A stretch of 64,000 nucleotides of DNA, taken from a phage. The stretch lies in sequence record PZ445487.1; one strand, written 5' to 3'. Position numbers and translations under genes: made by a program. The notes under the pieces were generated by a model that saw only the letters and a program-made list of their open reading frames with translations, did not search any database and was not told where the DNA came from. Shown one piece after another: positions 1-5,240 of this stretch (its first letter is position 1; the number at the start of each line of letters is the position of its first letter).

Positions 1-2211
1 ATGGCGTATCAGAAGCGTGATATAGAATATGCCCCAATTAAAACGGGGTTCAAAATAGACGATGTGAAATTGCGTATGGACCAAACGTTCATGCGCAAAC
101 CTTCTGTGCGTGCTCCTCGAGTCGAGTTAATGCTGACAGATGAACAAGAAGACGAATTCGTTGAATGTTCTATGGATGCACACTACTTCGCCGCCAACTA
201 TTACAAGATAACCACGATCGATAAGGGCTTTATCCTTTTCGATATGCATGATTATCAGAAGCAGTTGTTCCACGACTTTCAGGACTATCGATTTAATGCG
301 GTCGTCCAGGCTCGTCAGTCCGGAAAATGTGTAAAAGGCGACACGCTTGTCACAGTTTACGATACTCTCAGCCAAGAGGAGTTGCTCCTGACTATAGGGG
401 AGCTTCACAGCCGCTTCGAGGACGTCAACCACGCTGTGCCGCTGAATACCATTGGCAACCATGACAAGTTCGTGGACAGCCGCTTCGGCAAACGTTACTT
501 TGTACAATCCGATAGTGGCTGGGTTCCGGTTATCGCAGCGCATAAGACGAAGAAATATGCGGAATTCGTTATTGTCACCGTTACCGGAAGGCGAATTAAC
601 GTGGCCGATGAACATATGTTCTTCACTCCGGACATGAAGGAGATATTTGCCAAAGACCTGAATGCTGGGTCATACATCATGACGACAGAAGGTCCAGAAG
701 AAATCCGTGAGATTTGGCAGACTGGTGAATATCACCATATGTACGATCTTCAGGTCAAATCTAGTGATCAACGTTATTACACGAATGGCTTTCTCAGTCA
801 TAACACGACCGTGGTGGCGGCGTTTCTTCTTTGGTATGCGATGTTCCATTCTGATAAGGAAATCGCAGTACTGGCAAACAAAGAGAAACAAGCGATAGAA
901 ATTCTTGACCGTATCAGAAAAGCATACCAAGACCTTCCATTCTTCCTTCAGCAGGGTTGTGAGAAGTTTGGTTCTACCCTGATAGAGTTTGAGAATGGTT
1001 CTAAGATATACGCTTATGCCACGTCTTCGGACTCCATCCGTGGTCGTTCTGTATCGCTCTTGTACGTTGACGAAGTCGCGTTTATCGAAAACGACTTTGA
1101 ATTTTGGGAATCAACTTTCCCAGCCATTGCATCTGCCGATACATCACGCTGTATTTTGACAAGTACTCCGAAAGGCCAGCGAGGGTTGTTCTATGATATT
1201 GTCACCAAAGCAGATCCGCGCCATCCACAATACAACGACTTCCACCTAACTGAAGTCCCATGGTATAAGGTTCCGGCATATACCAAAGATCCAGATTGGG
1301 AAACCAAACAACGTGCCCGTCTGGGGGATGCTCGTTTCGATCAAGAATTTGGCATTAAGTTCCGTGGTTCCGTGGGTTCATTGATTCCGGCCAAATGCTT
1401 AGATAAAATGACGTCCAAGTTGTATCGGGAACCTAATGAATTCACCAAGATTTATAAGGAATACGACCCACAACGTCTCTACTTTGGGATTGCGGACACT
1501 GGGAAGGGGGTGGAAGGAGATTATTCCGTCTTAACAATTCTGGATATAACTGAATATCCGCATGTTATAGCAGCCAAGTACAGGAATAACACGATACCTC
1601 CTATGATGTATGCATACACGATAGCTGATATGTGCACCGAATACGGGGAATGCCCTGTCCTTGTTGAAACAAACAACGACGTCGGCGGTCAGGTTATTAC
1701 AATTCTTTATCAAGAGATAGAATATCCAGAAATCATATTCACATCAACAGATAACAAAGGGACGGGGAAACGGATTGGTGGACGTAAACCGGAACCTGGT
1801 ATCAATACCAACAGAAAAGTCCGATCTATCGGTTGTGCTAACCTGAAAGCGCTCATTGAGAAAGAAATGTTGGTGATAGAAGACCAGGACACGATAGATG
1901 AACTCAGTACATTTGTGTTCAAAGGCGCTCGGTATGAAGCCGATGACGGTTGTCACGATGACTGTGTCATGCCGTTGGTCTTATATTCATGGGCGGTAAA
2001 ACAAGAATGGTTCAGTGACTTGACATCTACAAGTATTTCTCAGGACATGAGAAACCGAATGTCTTCAACTGAATCCCAGCAGGTATTCCCATTTGGCGGT
2101 TTAGTCGTTGGAGACACCCCATCCGAAACTGAGCATTTGCCTGGTTTCGGGGGTATTCAAGTTTTCAACGAAATGTCAGGGATGACCATGGATGAGTGGT
2201 TTAAGAATTGA
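1..2211 (+). CDS. 17: Terminase large subunit (T4 gp17-like), interrupted by an in-frame mini-intein
   Basis: Flanks of the insertion rejoin to a P-loop ARQSGK|TTVVAAFLL matching the T4 gp17 Walker A (SRQLGKTTVVA); Walker B-like LLYVDEVAF follows. ORF begins at window position 1, so the N-terminus may be cut by the window edge. Confidence 0.85.
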   Translation: MAYQKRDIEYAPIKTGFKIDDVKLRMDQTFMRKPSVRAPRVELMLTDEQEDEFVECSMDAHYFAANYYKITTIDKGFILFDMHDYQKQLFHDFQDYRFNAVVQARQSGKCVKGDTLVTVYDTLSQEELLLTIGELHSRFEDVNHAVPLNTIGNHDKFVDSRFGKRYFVQSDSGWVPVIAAHKTKKYAEFVIVTVTGRRINVADEHMFFTPDMKEIFAKDLNAGSYIMTTEGPEEIREIWQTGEYHHMYDLQVKSSDQRYYTNGFLSHNTTVVAAFLLWYAMFHSDKEIAVLANKEKQAIEILDRIRKAYQDLPFFLQQGCEKFGSTLIEFENGSKIYAYATSSDSIRGRSVSLLYVDEVAFIENDFEFWESTFPAIASADTSRCILTSTPKGQRGLFYDIVTKADPRHPQYNDFHLTEVPWYKVPAYTKDPDWETKQRARLGDARFDQEFGIKFRGSVGSLIPAKCLDKMTSKLYREPNEFTKIYKEYDPQRLYFGIADTGKGVEGDYSVLTILDITEYPHVIAAKYRNNTIPPMMYAYTIADMCTEYGECPVLVETNNDVGGQVITILYQEIEYPEIIFTSTDNKGTGKRIGGRKPEPGINTNRKVRSIGCANLKALIEKEMLVIEDQDTIDELSTFVFKGARYEADDGCHDDCVMPLVLYSWAVKQEWFSDLTSTSISQDMRNRMSSTESQQVFPFGGLVVGDTPSETEHLPGFGGIQVFNEMSGMTMDEWFKN
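328..804 (+). mobile_element. Mini-intein (159 aa) in the terminase Walker A P-loop
   Basis: Insert starts with Cys (CVKGDTLV), ends with SHN and is followed by Thr as +1 extein residue; about 160 aa with no room for a homing endonuclease domain. Confidence 0.7.
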
Positions 2212-2214
2212 TCA

Positions 2215-2221
2215 CTAAATA
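2215..2221 (+). promoter_or_regulatory. Late-promoter-like CTAAATA motif upstream of gene 18
   Basis: cactaaatatc about 40 nt upstream of the gp18 ATG; resembles the T4 late promoter TATAAATA with C at the first position. Confidence 0.3.
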
Positions 2222-2263
2222 TCTTTCAAATTGAGCGAAACTCTACCGAGAAGGAATGATATT

Positions 2264-4159
2264 ATGGCAACTCAAAGCTTCAGCGTTGCGCCGTCCGTTC
2301 AGTGGACTGAGCGTGATGCCACGCTTCAGACGTCCCCGTCCGTTGTTGTTCAGGGCGCGACCGTCGGCAAATTTCAATGGGGTGAAGTTGAACTTCCAGT
2401 GCTGGTGACTGGTGGTGAGACAGGTTTGGTGAAGAAATTCTTCAAACCCAACGACAGTACTGCGACCGATTTTCTCGTAATCGCGGACTTTTTGTCTTAC
2501 AGCTCTATGGCATGGGTGACCCGTGTTGTTGGTCCTCTGGCCAAGAACTCTGTTACCAAAGGTCAGACAGCGATTGCGATCAAAAACAAACTGGATTTTG
2601 AAACAGCAAGTCCTTCGGCGTCCATCACTTGGACTGGTCGTTATCCAGGTTCCCTGGGTAATGATATTGCTATCAATGTTTGTGATGCTGCTGGATTCTC
2701 AACTTGGGAATTCCGTAATAACTTTGCATACGCACCTCAGTCTGGTGAATTCCATGTAGTTGTCGTAGACAAAGTTGGTCGCATTACCGACTCTGCTGGC
2801 GCGGTCGGTCAGGTTGACCGTATCTCCGTTTCTGGTACGGCTACTGCTGCTGGCACCATCAGTGTGGCAGGTGAAGATATCGCATATCTGGATACTGATA
2901 CTCCAGCCGATTTGGCAACCAAAATCGGTACAGCACTAACTTCCCTGACAAGTGTTTATTCTTCTGTTGTCGTGAAGTCCAACACTGTCATCGTGACCCA
3001 TAAAGCTATTGGTCCCCAGACAGTTACTGCTATTGTTCCAGATGATAAGGGGCTGACTGCAACCGCCGTGATTACCACTGTTGGCGCATCTGGTTCTATT
3101 ATCGAAAAATACGAACTCATGCAGAACACACAGGGTTCCAAAAAGTCCGATGGCGCGAATGCGTACTTCAAAGATGTCATCAATGATACATCAAATTGGG
3201 TGTACACCTTCGCTACCGCTCTGGCCGCAGGTGTTGTTGAATTAGAAGGCGGCGTAGACGATTATAACATCAACCGCGTGGCAGCTATCCAAGTCTTGAA
3301 CAATGCTGAAGCATATGATGCGAAGCCAGTATTTGCGTACTGTGAAGAACTGATTGAGCAACAAGCATTGATCGACTTATCTACTGAGCGAAAAGATACG
3401 GTATCTTTCGTATCCCCGCTCCGTGATACGGTTGTTGGCAACCGTGGTCGTGAAATGGATGATGTCGTTGCTTGGCGTGAAAGCCTTGTTCGCGACTCTT
3501 CTTATTTCTTCATGGATGATAACTGGGCATATGTGTACGACAAGTACAACGACAAAATGCGTTGGATTCCGGCTTGTGGTGGCACCGCAGGTGTTTGGGC
3601 GCGAAGCATTGAAATCGCGGGTATCTACAAATCTCCGGCGTTCCACAACCGTGGTAAATACAACAACTATAATCGAATGGCGTGGTCTGCGTCTTCTGAT
3701 GAACGTGCTGTGTTGTACCGCAATCAGATCAACAGCATCGTAACCTTCTCCAATGAAGGCATCGTCCTGTATGGTGACAAAACTGGCCTGACCCGCCCGT
3801 CGGCGTTTGACCGCATCAACGTTCGTGGTCTGTTCATCATGGCTGAGCAGAACATCGCCGCAATCGCCAAATACTATCTTGGTGAGAACAATGACGCGTT
3901 TACACGTGGTCTGTTCAGCAATGCGGTTCGTCCATATATCCGCCAGCTGGCAAATATGGGCGCGATTTACGATGGTAAAGTCAAATGTGATGAAGACAAC
4001 AACACTGCTGATGTCATTGCGGCAAACCAAATGGTTGCAGGCATTTGGTTGAAGCCTGAGTACAGCATTAATTGGGTCTACTTAGATTTTGCTGCAGTTC
4101 GACCAGATATGGAGTTCAGCGAAATCGAATCCGGTGGCGGCATCGTTGCTGCTTCATAA
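2264..4159 (+). CDS. 18: Tail sheath protein (gp18-like)
   Basis: C-terminal half matches T4 gp18 as I recall it (YVYDKYNDKMRWIPA, PSAFDRINVRGLF). Start moved from track 2231 to ATG 2264, which has aaggaa 8 nt upstream. Confidence 0.9.
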   Translation: MATQSFSVAPSVQWTERDATLQTSPSVVVQGATVGKFQWGEVELPVLVTGGETGLVKKFFKPNDSTATDFLVIADFLSYSSMAWVTRVVGPLAKNSVTKGQTAIAIKNKLDFETASPSASITWTGRYPGSLGNDIAINVCDAAGFSTWEFRNNFAYAPQSGEFHVVVVDKVGRITDSAGAVGQVDRISVSGTATAAGTISVAGEDIAYLDTDTPADLATKIGTALTSLTSVYSSVVVKSNTVIVTHKAIGPQTVTAIVPDDKGLTATAVITTVGASGSIIEKYELMQNTQGSKKSDGANAYFKDVINDTSNWVYTFATALAAGVVELEGGVDDYNINRVAAIQVLNNAEAYDAKPVFAYCEELIEQQALIDLSTERKDTVSFVSPLRDTVVGNRGREMDDVVAWRESLVRDSSYFFMDDNWAYVYDKYNDKMRWIPACGGTAGVWARSIEIAGIYKSPAFHNRGKYNNYNRMAWSASSDERAVLYRNQINSIVTFSNEGIVLYGDKTGLTRPSAFDRINVRGLFIMAEQNIAAIAKYYLGENNDAFTRGLFSNAVRPYIRQLANMGAIYDGKVKCDEDNNTADVIAANQMVAGIWLKPEYSINWVYLDFAAVRPDMEFSEIESGGGIVAAS

Positions 4160-4167
4160 AAATGACC

Positions 4168-4191
4168 AACCCCGCTTCGGCGGGGTTTTCC
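4168..4191 (+). terminator. Rho-independent terminator after gene 18
   Basis: GC hairpin aaccccgc-ttcg-gcggggtt followed by a T-run. Confidence 0.6.
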
Positions 4192-4217
4192 TTTGTCTTA
4201 TTGATTTGAGTTATTGA

Positions 4218-4676
4218 ATGATATACGCATACAAAATTGAAACGATAACTAATGGAAAGGTCTACATCGGTGTGACCAATGACCCACAACGAAGATATGA
4301 TCAGCATTTTGCGAATGCTTTTCATCATGGAGTCCAAAGTGAATTGTATGATGCCATGCGTAAGTATGGAACATCTGGATTTACTTTCGTTGTAATTGCT
4401 CAGACCGATGAAGTCCATAAATGGGAATTAGAGAAGCAACTCATCGCTCAATATAATTCTTATGAGATGGGTTACAACATGAATAAAGGCGGTAATGATG
4501 GAAGTCATATGCTGGGTAAAACTGCAGCAAAATTGACATCTACAGGTGAACACATTGGTCTTGTTTCTCTCATAGACCCCCGTTGGGAATTGTGTGAAAT
4601 CGAACCCGTTTTAAGCAATGTTGACCACGGATTTGATTTTTCTTCCATGAAGATTAAAAGATTGACGACTAATTAG
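4218..4676 (+). CDS. GIY-YIG homing endonuclease-like protein (Seg-like), short form
   Basis: N-terminus IYAYKIETITNGKVYIGVTNDPQRRYDQH carries the GIY...YIG motif and conserved Arg; free-standing between gp18 and gp19. Only 152 aa, so the DNA-binding domain may be missing. Confidence 0.7.
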   Translation: MIYAYKIETITNGKVYIGVTNDPQRRYDQHFANAFHHGVQSELYDAMRKYGTSGFTFVVIAQTDEVHKWELEKQLIAQYNSYEMGYNMNKGGNDGSHMLGKTAAKLTSTGEHIGLVSLIDPRWELCEIEPVLSNVDHGFDFSSMKIKRLTTN

Positions 4677-4706: not shown

Positions 4707-5240
4707 ATGGCGACAGTCAATGAGTTTCGCGCAGCCATGTCACGAGGGGGCGGCGTACAACGCCAACACCGCTGGCGTGTGACTGTAAACTTTCCTTCTT
4801 TTGTTGCTGGTTCCGACACAATTCGTGACGTGTCCTTGCTGGCTGTAACCACCAACACCCCAACAGGTCAGCTGGGTGAAATTCTGGTTCCTTGGGGTGG
4901 ACGTGAACTTCCGTTCCCAGGGGATCGTCGTTTCGAAGCGCTTCCTGTGACGTTCATTAACGTAGTGAACAACGCTCCATACAATGCTTTTGAAGTGTGG
5001 CAGCAATTCATCAACGGTAGTGAAAACAACCGCGCCAGCGCGAATCCAGATGATTATTTCCGTGATATCATCATGGAACTTCTGGACGCGAATGACAACG
5101 TGACTAAGACATGGACTTTACAGGGCGGCTGGCCTCAAAACCTCGGCCAACTGGAACTCGATATGTCGGCAATGGACTCTTACACACAGTTCACTGTCGA
5201 TTTGCGTTATTTCCAAGCCGTTTCTGACAAGTCATTGTAA
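4707..5240 (+). CDS. 19: Tail tube protein (gp19-like)
   Basis: 177 aa directly after the sheath gene; overall resemblance to T4 gp19, including the C-terminal TWTLQGGWPQNLGQLELD region. Confidence 0.8.
   Translation: MATVNEFRAAMSRGGGVQRQHRWRVTVNFPSFVAGSDTIRDVSLLAVTTNTPTGQLGEILVPWGGRELPFPGDRRFEALPVTFINVVNNAPYNAFEVWQQFINGSENNRASANPDDYFRDIIMELLDANDNVTKTWTLQGGWPQNLGQLELDMSAMDSYTQFTVDLRYFQAVSDKSL

Follow-up and report, generated by a model that had tools for sequence, protein, structure and literature searches.

A probable class 1 mini-intein in the Walker A P-loop of the large terminase of Escherichia phage CBA120

The interrupted large terminase gene

The window analysed here is a 64,000-nucleotide stretch of phage DNA (sequence record PZ445487.1) that opens with the gene of the large terminase subunit (TerL). 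The gene carries an in-frame insert at nt 328–804, which is very probably a functional class 1 mini-intein located in the Walker A P-loop of the protein. Nucleotides 1–2211 of the window are those of Escherichia phage CBA120 (JN593240 / NC_016570), with 100% identity to record positions 108091–110301 on the reverse strand, and the phage belongs to the genus Kuttervirus of the family Ackermannviridae. The open reading frame (ORF) that fills this segment (1..2211, + strand, 736 residues) is orf198 in the CBA120 annotation, where it is described as 'terminase large subunit'; the intein is mentioned in neither the GenBank nor the RefSeq record.

The product of this ORF is a large terminase of the T4 gp17 type (Terminase_6), as defined by an N-terminal ATPase domain with a Walker A motif, a C-terminal RNase H-like nuclease domain, and the gene order gp16-gp17-gp18. 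It matches PF03237 with an E-value of 2.8e-16 and PF17289 with 20.9 bits, slightly below the cut-off of 22.6, and the structures of T4 gp17 match it at E = 8e-69 in a PDB sequence search. The genes run in the order terS, terL, tail sheath, GIY-YIG endonuclease, tail tube, so that terS lies upstream of terL, with its final 20 nt overlapping the window start, and the sheath gene lies downstream. In each of the listed Ackermannviridae genomes terL was matched at a single place, and the interrupted gene thus appears to be the sole large-terminase gene of these phages.

The insert is 477 nt long (159 residues), in frame and free of stop codons, and corresponds to residues 110–268 of the TerL precursor. 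It starts with a Cys (codon 110, TGT, nt 328–330), ends with His-Asn (codons 267–268, CAT AAC, nt 799–804) and is followed by a Thr (codon 269, ACG, nt 805–807), which makes the precursor junctions ...NAVVQARQSGK / CVKGDTLV...GFLSHN / TTVVAAFLLW.... The N-terminal flank, or N-extein (nt 1..327, + strand, residues 1–109), ends with A-R-Q-S-G-K (nt 310–327), the first six residues of Walker A. The C-extein (nt 805..2211, + strand, residues 269–736 plus the stop codon) contains the Terminase_6N (269–460) and Terminase_6C (498–656) domains detected by Pfam. The insert therefore splits the Walker A motif between its Lys and Thr (ARQSGK|T, followed by TTVVAAF). The initial annotation, made from the DNA letters and their translations, had placed a 159-residue insert bounded by these residues between ARQSGK and TTVVAAF, and both the ORF translation and the gp17 alignment show that its coordinates were exact.

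Uninterrupted homologues define the same boundaries. Residues 85–166 of T4 gp17 (PDB ids 3ezk and 3cpe) pair with residues 28–109 of the CBA120 protein, and the alignment stops at K166 of gp17. It resumes with gp17 residues 166–563 pairing with CBA120 residues 268–675, in which the residue following K166 pairs with Thr269. Gp17 is thus contiguous across the junction (K166|T167), while CBA120 residues 110–268 have no counterpart. Continuous alignment through these residues would have spoken against the initial annotation, and there is a gap instead. In the insert-free TerL of Erwinia phage Bue1, also a member of the Ackermannviridae, and of Vibrio phage K489, the site reads as an uninterrupted RQSGKTTVVAAF. 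The insert is therefore an in-frame element that is absent from orthologues, in which the host sequence is contiguous over the site. It is found in full length in 285 phage records and is neither a chance feature nor an assembly artefact.

Two other observations concern this region. The endonuclease gene of the cluster is orf195 (window 4218–4676, + strand, 152 residues), a free-standing GIY-YIG homing endonuclease gene 3.4 kb downstream, flanked by the tail sheath gene, which ends at 4159, and the tail tube gene, which starts at 4707. A large number of Salmonella and E. coli phages of the genus Kuttervirus share at least 99% identity with the window terL. Identities of 99.7–99.9% are also given by two records titled 'Pseudomonas phage Pa-sanjiao' and 'Enterococcus phage Efm 3-10'; mislabelled hosts or sample contamination are the likely reason.

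Splicing motifs, fold and conservation of the insert

The sequence motifs of the insert were examined in an alignment with 22 inserts of related TerL proteins, with identities down to 31%. The residues C1, K47, G64, T74, A93, D94, H96, G114, M138, D140, T152 and L156-S157-H158-N159 are invariant over the 23 sequences. Block A, CVKGDTLVTVYDT (nt 328..366; this and all following blocks are on the + strand), opens with Cys1, the sole Cys of the insert, and contains V2 and T6, which are at least 90% conserved. A short linker, DVNHAVPLNTIGNHD (intein residues 32–46, nt 421..465), is variable in length and gapped in the alignment. Block B, TGRRINVADEHMFF (nt 583..624), carries the motif A-D-x-H that includes His96 (nt 613–615). 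Block F, EYHHMYDLQVKSS (nt 727..765), has the motif M-[YF]-D-L with Asp140 and lines up with the corresponding block of the Cat, VidaL and CDC21 inteins. Block G, YYTNGFLSHN (nt 775..804), ends with L-S-H-N, in which His158 and Asn159 are the last two residues. The +1 position is occupied by Thr or Ser in 32 of the 32 inserts listed. The insert thus has all of the expected intein features (Cys at position 1, the block B His, the block F Asp and a terminal His-Asn followed by Thr+1), with a deviation at the block B Thr. There is no Cys in block F, where Asp140 is found, and the insert is not a class 3 intein with a WCT triplet.

Profile searches give intein matches close to the cut-offs. When the insert alone is scored, it matches the Pfam family PF14890 (Intein_splicing) with 36.3 bits against a cut-off of 35.8 (E = 6e-9). 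The NCBIfam model TIGR01443 (intein_Cterm), which matches block G, scores 15.8 against a cut-off of 15.6, and TIGR01445 (intein_Nterm) scores 24.4, just below its cut-off of 24.5. No family other than inteins was found to match the insert in these profile searches, and the other weak matches are to models of intein-containing proteins. The nearest solved sequences in the PDB are the consensus atypical intein CatC, VidaL, the CDC21 intein and gp41-1, the best matches being CatC (PDB id 6dsl, E = 0.003) and VidaL (PDB id 6vgv, E = 0.005).

The AlphaFold2 model calculated from the alignment is a compact, beta-rich, single domain with a mean pLDDT (predicted local distance difference test) score of 95.2 and a predicted template modelling (pTM) score of 0.87. 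The linker, with a pLDDT of 88, is its lowest-scoring block. A Foldseek comparison of this model with the PDB gives 70 matches with E-values of 1e-3 or lower and TM-scores of up to 0.80. The top 50 comprise 46 intein chains and four chains of the Tetrahymena BIL2 domain, which has an intein-like hedgehog/intein (HINT) fold, and the best match is again VidaL (E = 3e-11). The insert is therefore predicted to have the HINT fold. It contains no homing endonuclease domain, since Intein_splicing is the only Pfam hit in its 159 residues and the model has no extra lobe, so the splicing blocks of this mini-intein have no endonuclease domain between them.

These results uphold the initial annotation in its identification of an intein that lacks an endonuclease and, roughly, in the predicted size of the excised product, for which about 17 kDa had been given. 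The precursor has a calculated mass of 84.5 kDa, from which splicing would release an intein of 18.3 kDa and leave a TerL of 66.2 kDa.

A tblastn search with the intein finds 310 phage records, of which 285 contain it in full length. The 159-residue form occupies the same site in Kuttervirus, Agtrevirus, Limestonevirus, Taipeivirus and Miltonvirus, and a 179-residue version with ~31–35% identity is present in Vapseptimavirus (phage VAP7), which brings the total to six genera of the Ackermannviridae. More remote relatives are found in the T4-like terminases of Campylobacter and Vibrio phages. Insert-free TerL proteins occur in the Ackermannviridae genus Nezavisimistyvirus (Erwinia phages Bue1 and phiEa2809) and in a Vibrio/Aeromonas group that includes K489, and single-piece matches to the uninterrupted junction were found in 76 records. 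In Campylobacter phage CP21, the intein-related T4-like terminase (L010:1994–4439) is annotated as two overlapping coding sequences (1994–3205 and 3174–4439); a frameshift, an error in sequencing or a genuine split could account for this.

Selection on the intein was estimated from phages MK13 and LIMEstone1, an unsaturated pair. The ratio of non-synonymous to synonymous substitution rates (dN/dS) is 0.057 for the intein and 0.038 for the extein, and the dN of the intein equals that of the extein. The intein is therefore under strong purifying selection. The initial annotation had suggested an old, degenerate intein. The first of these adjectives is appropriate, as the site and length are shared by five genera and a longer version exists in Vapseptimavirus. 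The second has to be qualified: the splicing domain, with a dN/dS of ~0.06 that is near the extein value, is not decaying. Nor is there evidence that an in-frame endonuclease was ever lost, because the endonucleases associated with relatives are either free-standing or out-of-frame at the N-proximal site.

Several points weigh against a functional intein. The block B Thr position is occupied by Ala93, the profile scores lie close to their cut-offs (two models pass, TIGR01445 fails, and PF14890 drops to 29.6 bits when the whole protein is scored), and we infer splicing of the TerL of CBA120, or of any phage of the Ackermannviridae, from sequence and predicted structure rather than from experiment. 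The same points would favour a HINT-like domain that has lost the ability to splice, being either retained in the mature terminase or able only to cleave. The Ala is invariant in this intein family, though, and the A-x-x-H arrangement is also present in the solved structure of VidaL, which is active. A domain retained within GxxxxGK[T/S] would disrupt the loop that binds phosphate in an essential ATPase, and the insert-free orthologues show this loop to be otherwise contiguous. All catalytic residues are invariant over a deep divergence, dN/dS is low, terL was matched at one place in each listed genome, and homologous inteins exist as naturally split gene pairs that could function only by trans-splicing. 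We therefore consider loss of splicing very unlikely and a functional mini-intein by far the more plausible interpretation.

An intervening sequence that acts at the level of nucleic acid (a group I intron, for instance, or a mobile ORF) and is in frame only by chance is more improbable still. Group I introns and free-standing homing endonucleases are frequent in T4-like phages, and the GIY-YIG gene orf195 is found 3.4 kb downstream, but the insert maintains an open frame, is conserved at the protein level with intein motifs, is predicted to have the HINT fold, and differs between relatives mostly by synonymous substitutions in blocks F and G. The possibility of an intron or other RNA element was rejected because the whole window (1–64000) contains neither matches to Rfam families at the gathering threshold nor tRNA genes. 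An ORF of 162 residues on the opposite strand (127..615, − strand) overlaps the N-extein and the intein, but it is interrupted by stop codons in phages Vi01 and Magnus and is almost certainly not a gene.

Split, nested and recombining relatives

A word-indexed protein search with the intein alone gave two matches, and exhaustive HMMER searches and full-length TerL queries were used instead. With the intein as the query, HMMER finds 701 proteins at E-values of 1e-3 or lower, 311 of them at 1e-10 or lower. In most of the top 150 matches, intein residues ~46–159 align to the first ~125 residues of the protein and are followed by a C-extein that starts with TTVV..., and hundreds of metagenomic TerL C-fragments open with a homologue of intein residues 46–159. 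The metagenomic contig SRR23684539_56284 (L014:3424–5788) contains a split version of the intein at the identical Walker A site. Its three ORFs encode 163 residues (the N-extein and a 53-residue tail that contains the N-terminal intein fragment, IntN), 42 residues, and 595 residues (the C-terminal intein fragment, IntC, and the C-extein). In the upstream ORF the N-extein ends with RQSGK and continues as CVDGETIIKIRN...TIGEFHEL, with CVDGETII... as its block A.

By these alignments the CBA120 intein is related to the atypically split TerL inteins and is itself contiguous, with residues 32–46 as the linker at the split position. In related TerL inteins, the segment that corresponds to this linker (nt 421..465) is both the split site and the site of endonuclease insertion. 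Dassa et al. (2009) singled out the terminase split intein as the only one that departs from the usual break point, and AceL-TerL, GOS-TerL and the consensus Cat are described as atypically split TerL inteins in a review (PMC11766414). Cat (6dsl) and VidaL are the best sequence matches to the CBA120 intein and VidaL is its best fold match, while AceL-TerL and GOS-TerL are likened to it through their description in the literature and not by sequence comparison. The split inteins are encoded by two genes, act by trans-splicing and have, where characterised, an IntN of 25–37 residues, whereas in CBA120 there is one ORF with a 15-residue linker; the CBA120 intein has no separate IntN and IntC genes and does not belong to the naturally split type. 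The nucleophiles differ as well: AceL-TerL and Cat use Cys+1 and GOS-TerL uses Ser1/Cys+1 (PMC11766414), in contrast to Cys1/Thr+1 in CBA120.

Some metagenomic T4-like terL genes carry larger inserts of 420–450 residues at the same K|C site, with ~290 extra residues at the linker position. In P0054, P0058, P0065 and P0072 these middle segments, in which Pfam finds nothing and whose composition is odd, were considered as in-frame endonuclease domains of an unknown kind. This was rejected, as they are terL-frame read-throughs of nested genes that lie in another frame of the same strand. Two nested genes (L017:2871–3710 and L018:2865–3749, same strand as terL) encode Vsr-like/DUF559 endonucleases with a Ros/MucR-type zinc finger, and in the translations of two others (L019:1763–2689 and L020:1880–2776, same strand as terL) an HNH catalytic motif and NUMOD3-like repeats can be read. 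Across these loci the terL/intein frame is free of stops for 280–309 codons, and the third frame contains 21–31 stops. In 20,000 synonymous-codon shuffles of the nested genes, 12–22 stops are expected in the terL frame (minimum 4–11), and none is observed in any of the four loci. The absence of stops indicates that selection keeps the terL frame open, i.e. that these segments are dual coding.

Out-of-frame and antisense endonucleases have been reported in actinobacteriophage inteins (Gosselin, Arsenault and Gogarten, bioRxiv 10.1101/2025.01.02.630785). The four loci match the non-canonical architecture of that preprint in that a frame is open through the nested gene. Their endonucleases are of the Vsr-like or HNH+NUMOD3 type and are placed on the same strand at an N-proximal site, and with their apparent dual coding they are a further variant of these recently reported inteins. 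CBA120 itself has no nested ORF.

Other insertions are present in this group of terminases. In four proteins (P0063, which is the TerL of Vibrio phage VP-1, and P0052, P0061 and P0093), the ATPase domain runs into a GIY-YIG domain and Terminase_6C is missing, which suggests that a GIY-YIG insertion has fractured these terL genes where the ATPase part meets the nuclease part; a P-loop intein is present as well in three of the four. The metagenomic TerL P0081 (970 residues) has a 175-residue P-loop intein and a second insertion of ~300 residues inside the ATPase domain, where residues 373–449 give an in-frame match to a SegE-like GIY-YIG endonuclease.

Two intein alleles circulate in Kuttervirus. 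Between CBA120 and Vi01 (L004 2001–2477), which represents the Maynard/Vi01 type, the exteins are 98.9% identical in protein sequence and the inteins are 78.6% identical; the Magnus intein is 76.1% identical to that of CBA120. The dN of the CBA120–Vi01 pair is 0.162 in the intein vs 0.009 in the extein, and the proportion of synonymous differences (pS) is 0.78 vs 0.54. Relaxed constraint as the sole cause of the 21% divergence of the two inteins is ruled out by the dN/dS of the MK13–LIMEstone1 pair and by the raised pS, which points to alleles that are older than the rest of terL or are exchanged independently of it. The C-terminal half of the Vi01-type intein is 85.9% identical to the Taipeivirus allele vs 74.4% to the CBA120 type. 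The terL of Salmonella phage LPST94 (L007) is of the CBA120 type except for a clean Vi01-type tract of ~222 nt (nt 571–792) that falls within the C-terminal half of the intein, which indicates that the LPST94 intein is a natural chimera produced by recombination between the two Kuttervirus alleles. The divergence of the alleles and the LPST94 pattern together suggest that intein alleles coalesce deeper than their exteins and recombine without an endonuclease of their own.

The terS and the intein-bearing terL of Dickeya phage LIMEstone1 are separated by F-LimIX (L005:809–1693), a free-standing gene for a homing endonuclease. It is absent at the equivalent position in CBA120. F-LimIX might act in trans on terL alleles.

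The intein would persist mainly by vertical descent, because only its precise deletion would be tolerated, with occasional exchange of alleles through homologous recombination between co-infecting relatives. Hints that an intein without an endonuclease still spreads, through recombination or aided by free-standing endonucleases from genes in the vicinity, come from the deep divergence of two alleles whose exteins are nearly identical, from the LPST94 chimera and from the position of F-LimIX directly upstream of the LIMEstone1 terL, but as an explanation for the presence of the element such spread appears unlikely.

Proposed splicing pathway and its meaning for the terminase

Thr269 is both the Walker A Thr and the +1 position of the splicing nucleophile. 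The Walker A Thr is a magnesium and phosphate ligand of the P-loop. The terL gene would be translated as an 84.5-kDa precursor with a physically broken ATP-binding loop, in which the HINT domain folds and then splices. Splicing would start with an N–S acyl shift of Cys1 at the Lys109–Cys110 bond. The hydroxyl of Thr+1 would then attack the thioester in a trans-esterification that gives a branched intermediate, and cyclisation of Asn159, aided by His158 and Asp140, would free the 18.3-kDa intein. An O–N shift would finally join Lys to Thr, which would restore ARQSGKT and yield the active 66.2-kDa TerL. This four-step pathway is the standard, established chemistry of class 1 inteins. As the intein lies between the Lys and the Thr of Walker A, the precursor would have no functional ATP site, and packaging can soundly be taken to depend on splicing.

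The position of the CBA120 intein is not unusual among phage terminases. Kelley et al. 2016 (PMC5050341) describe the Lys|Thr junction of the P-loop as a 'classic' intein site, report that five other phage TerL inteins at other insertion sites were spliced experimentally, and argue that the pentameric motor is unable to assemble with the intein present. The mycobacteriophage intein TerL1-a of that study likewise sits after the invariant Lys and before the nucleophilic Thr of Walker A. It belongs to the family Terminase_1, whereas CBA120 TerL is of the T4 type (Terminase_6); the two are likened by site and not by sequence comparison. The Terminase_6 inteins of the same study are found in the C-motif and not, as in CBA120, in the P-loop.

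An intein at a catalytic P-loop position would make the activity of TerL strictly dependent on splicing and could have been kept as a post-translational gate, a conditional switch in which the rate of splicing controls when packaging begins or keeps the folded ATPase domain out of reach of sensors in the host. The precursor would be an inert packaging ATPase, and its maturation rate would set the timing of packaging or limit how far the folded domain is exposed to host defences that sense terminases, Avs2 among them. A regulatory function of P-loop inteins has been proposed (PMC4760082, PMC5050341), the ATPase domain of the terminase is bound by bacterial Avs2 sensors with a bridging ATP (PMC13601566), and the intein has been retained over genus-level divergence. 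Nothing in the sequence of the insert suggests a sensor, however: its single Cys provides no disulfide trap within the intein, and there is no extra domain. Moreover, the insert-free phages (Bue1 and the Vibrio/Aeromonas group) package their DNA without an intein, and the difficulty of precise deletion explains its retention equally well. A regulatory gate is therefore improbable, and a mini-intein that simply splices and is inherited with its gene remains our preferred interpretation.

The CBA120 TerL intein is already known, and its identification here is a correct rediscovery: the intein, the type of site and its presence in the genus have been published. The genome announcements of the Kuttervirus phages Maynard (Tatsch et al. 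2013) and Marshall (Luna et al. 2013) describe a large terminase that, unlike that of T4, is interrupted by an intein. The RefSeq record of Maynard (NC_022768) carries the note 'intein from Cys110-Asn268' and mat_peptide features with identical residue numbers. The intein of Klebsiella phage Magnus (Taipeivirus, 2019) has been published and annotated. All three share the host protein, insertion point, length and numbering with CBA120 and differ in allele. The record of Dickeya phage phiD3 labels terL as a HINT-domain protein, and reviews list terminases as common targets of inteins (PMC4760082). What is added here is the link to the atypically split TerL inteins, the two Kuttervirus alleles with their chimera, and the nested out-of-frame endonucleases of related inteins.

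As the intein, its type of site and its presence in the genus were already in the literature, the finding in CBA120 leaves current understanding unchanged. It has value for annotation: CBA120 and most of the ~280 related phage records call the gene 'terminase large subunit' or 'hypothetical protein', and terminase phylogenies and structure predictions that are based on the precursor are distorted by the 159 extra residues. Atypically split TerL inteins serve in protein engineering, and the CBA120 intein is related to them in a contiguous form. It also represents a clean, culturable case of an essential phage ATPase that would depend on protein splicing, in a well-studied group of E. coli O157 and Salmonella phages. 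Culturable and contiguous, it could be a tractable system in which to establish whether P-loop inteins regulate their host enzyme.

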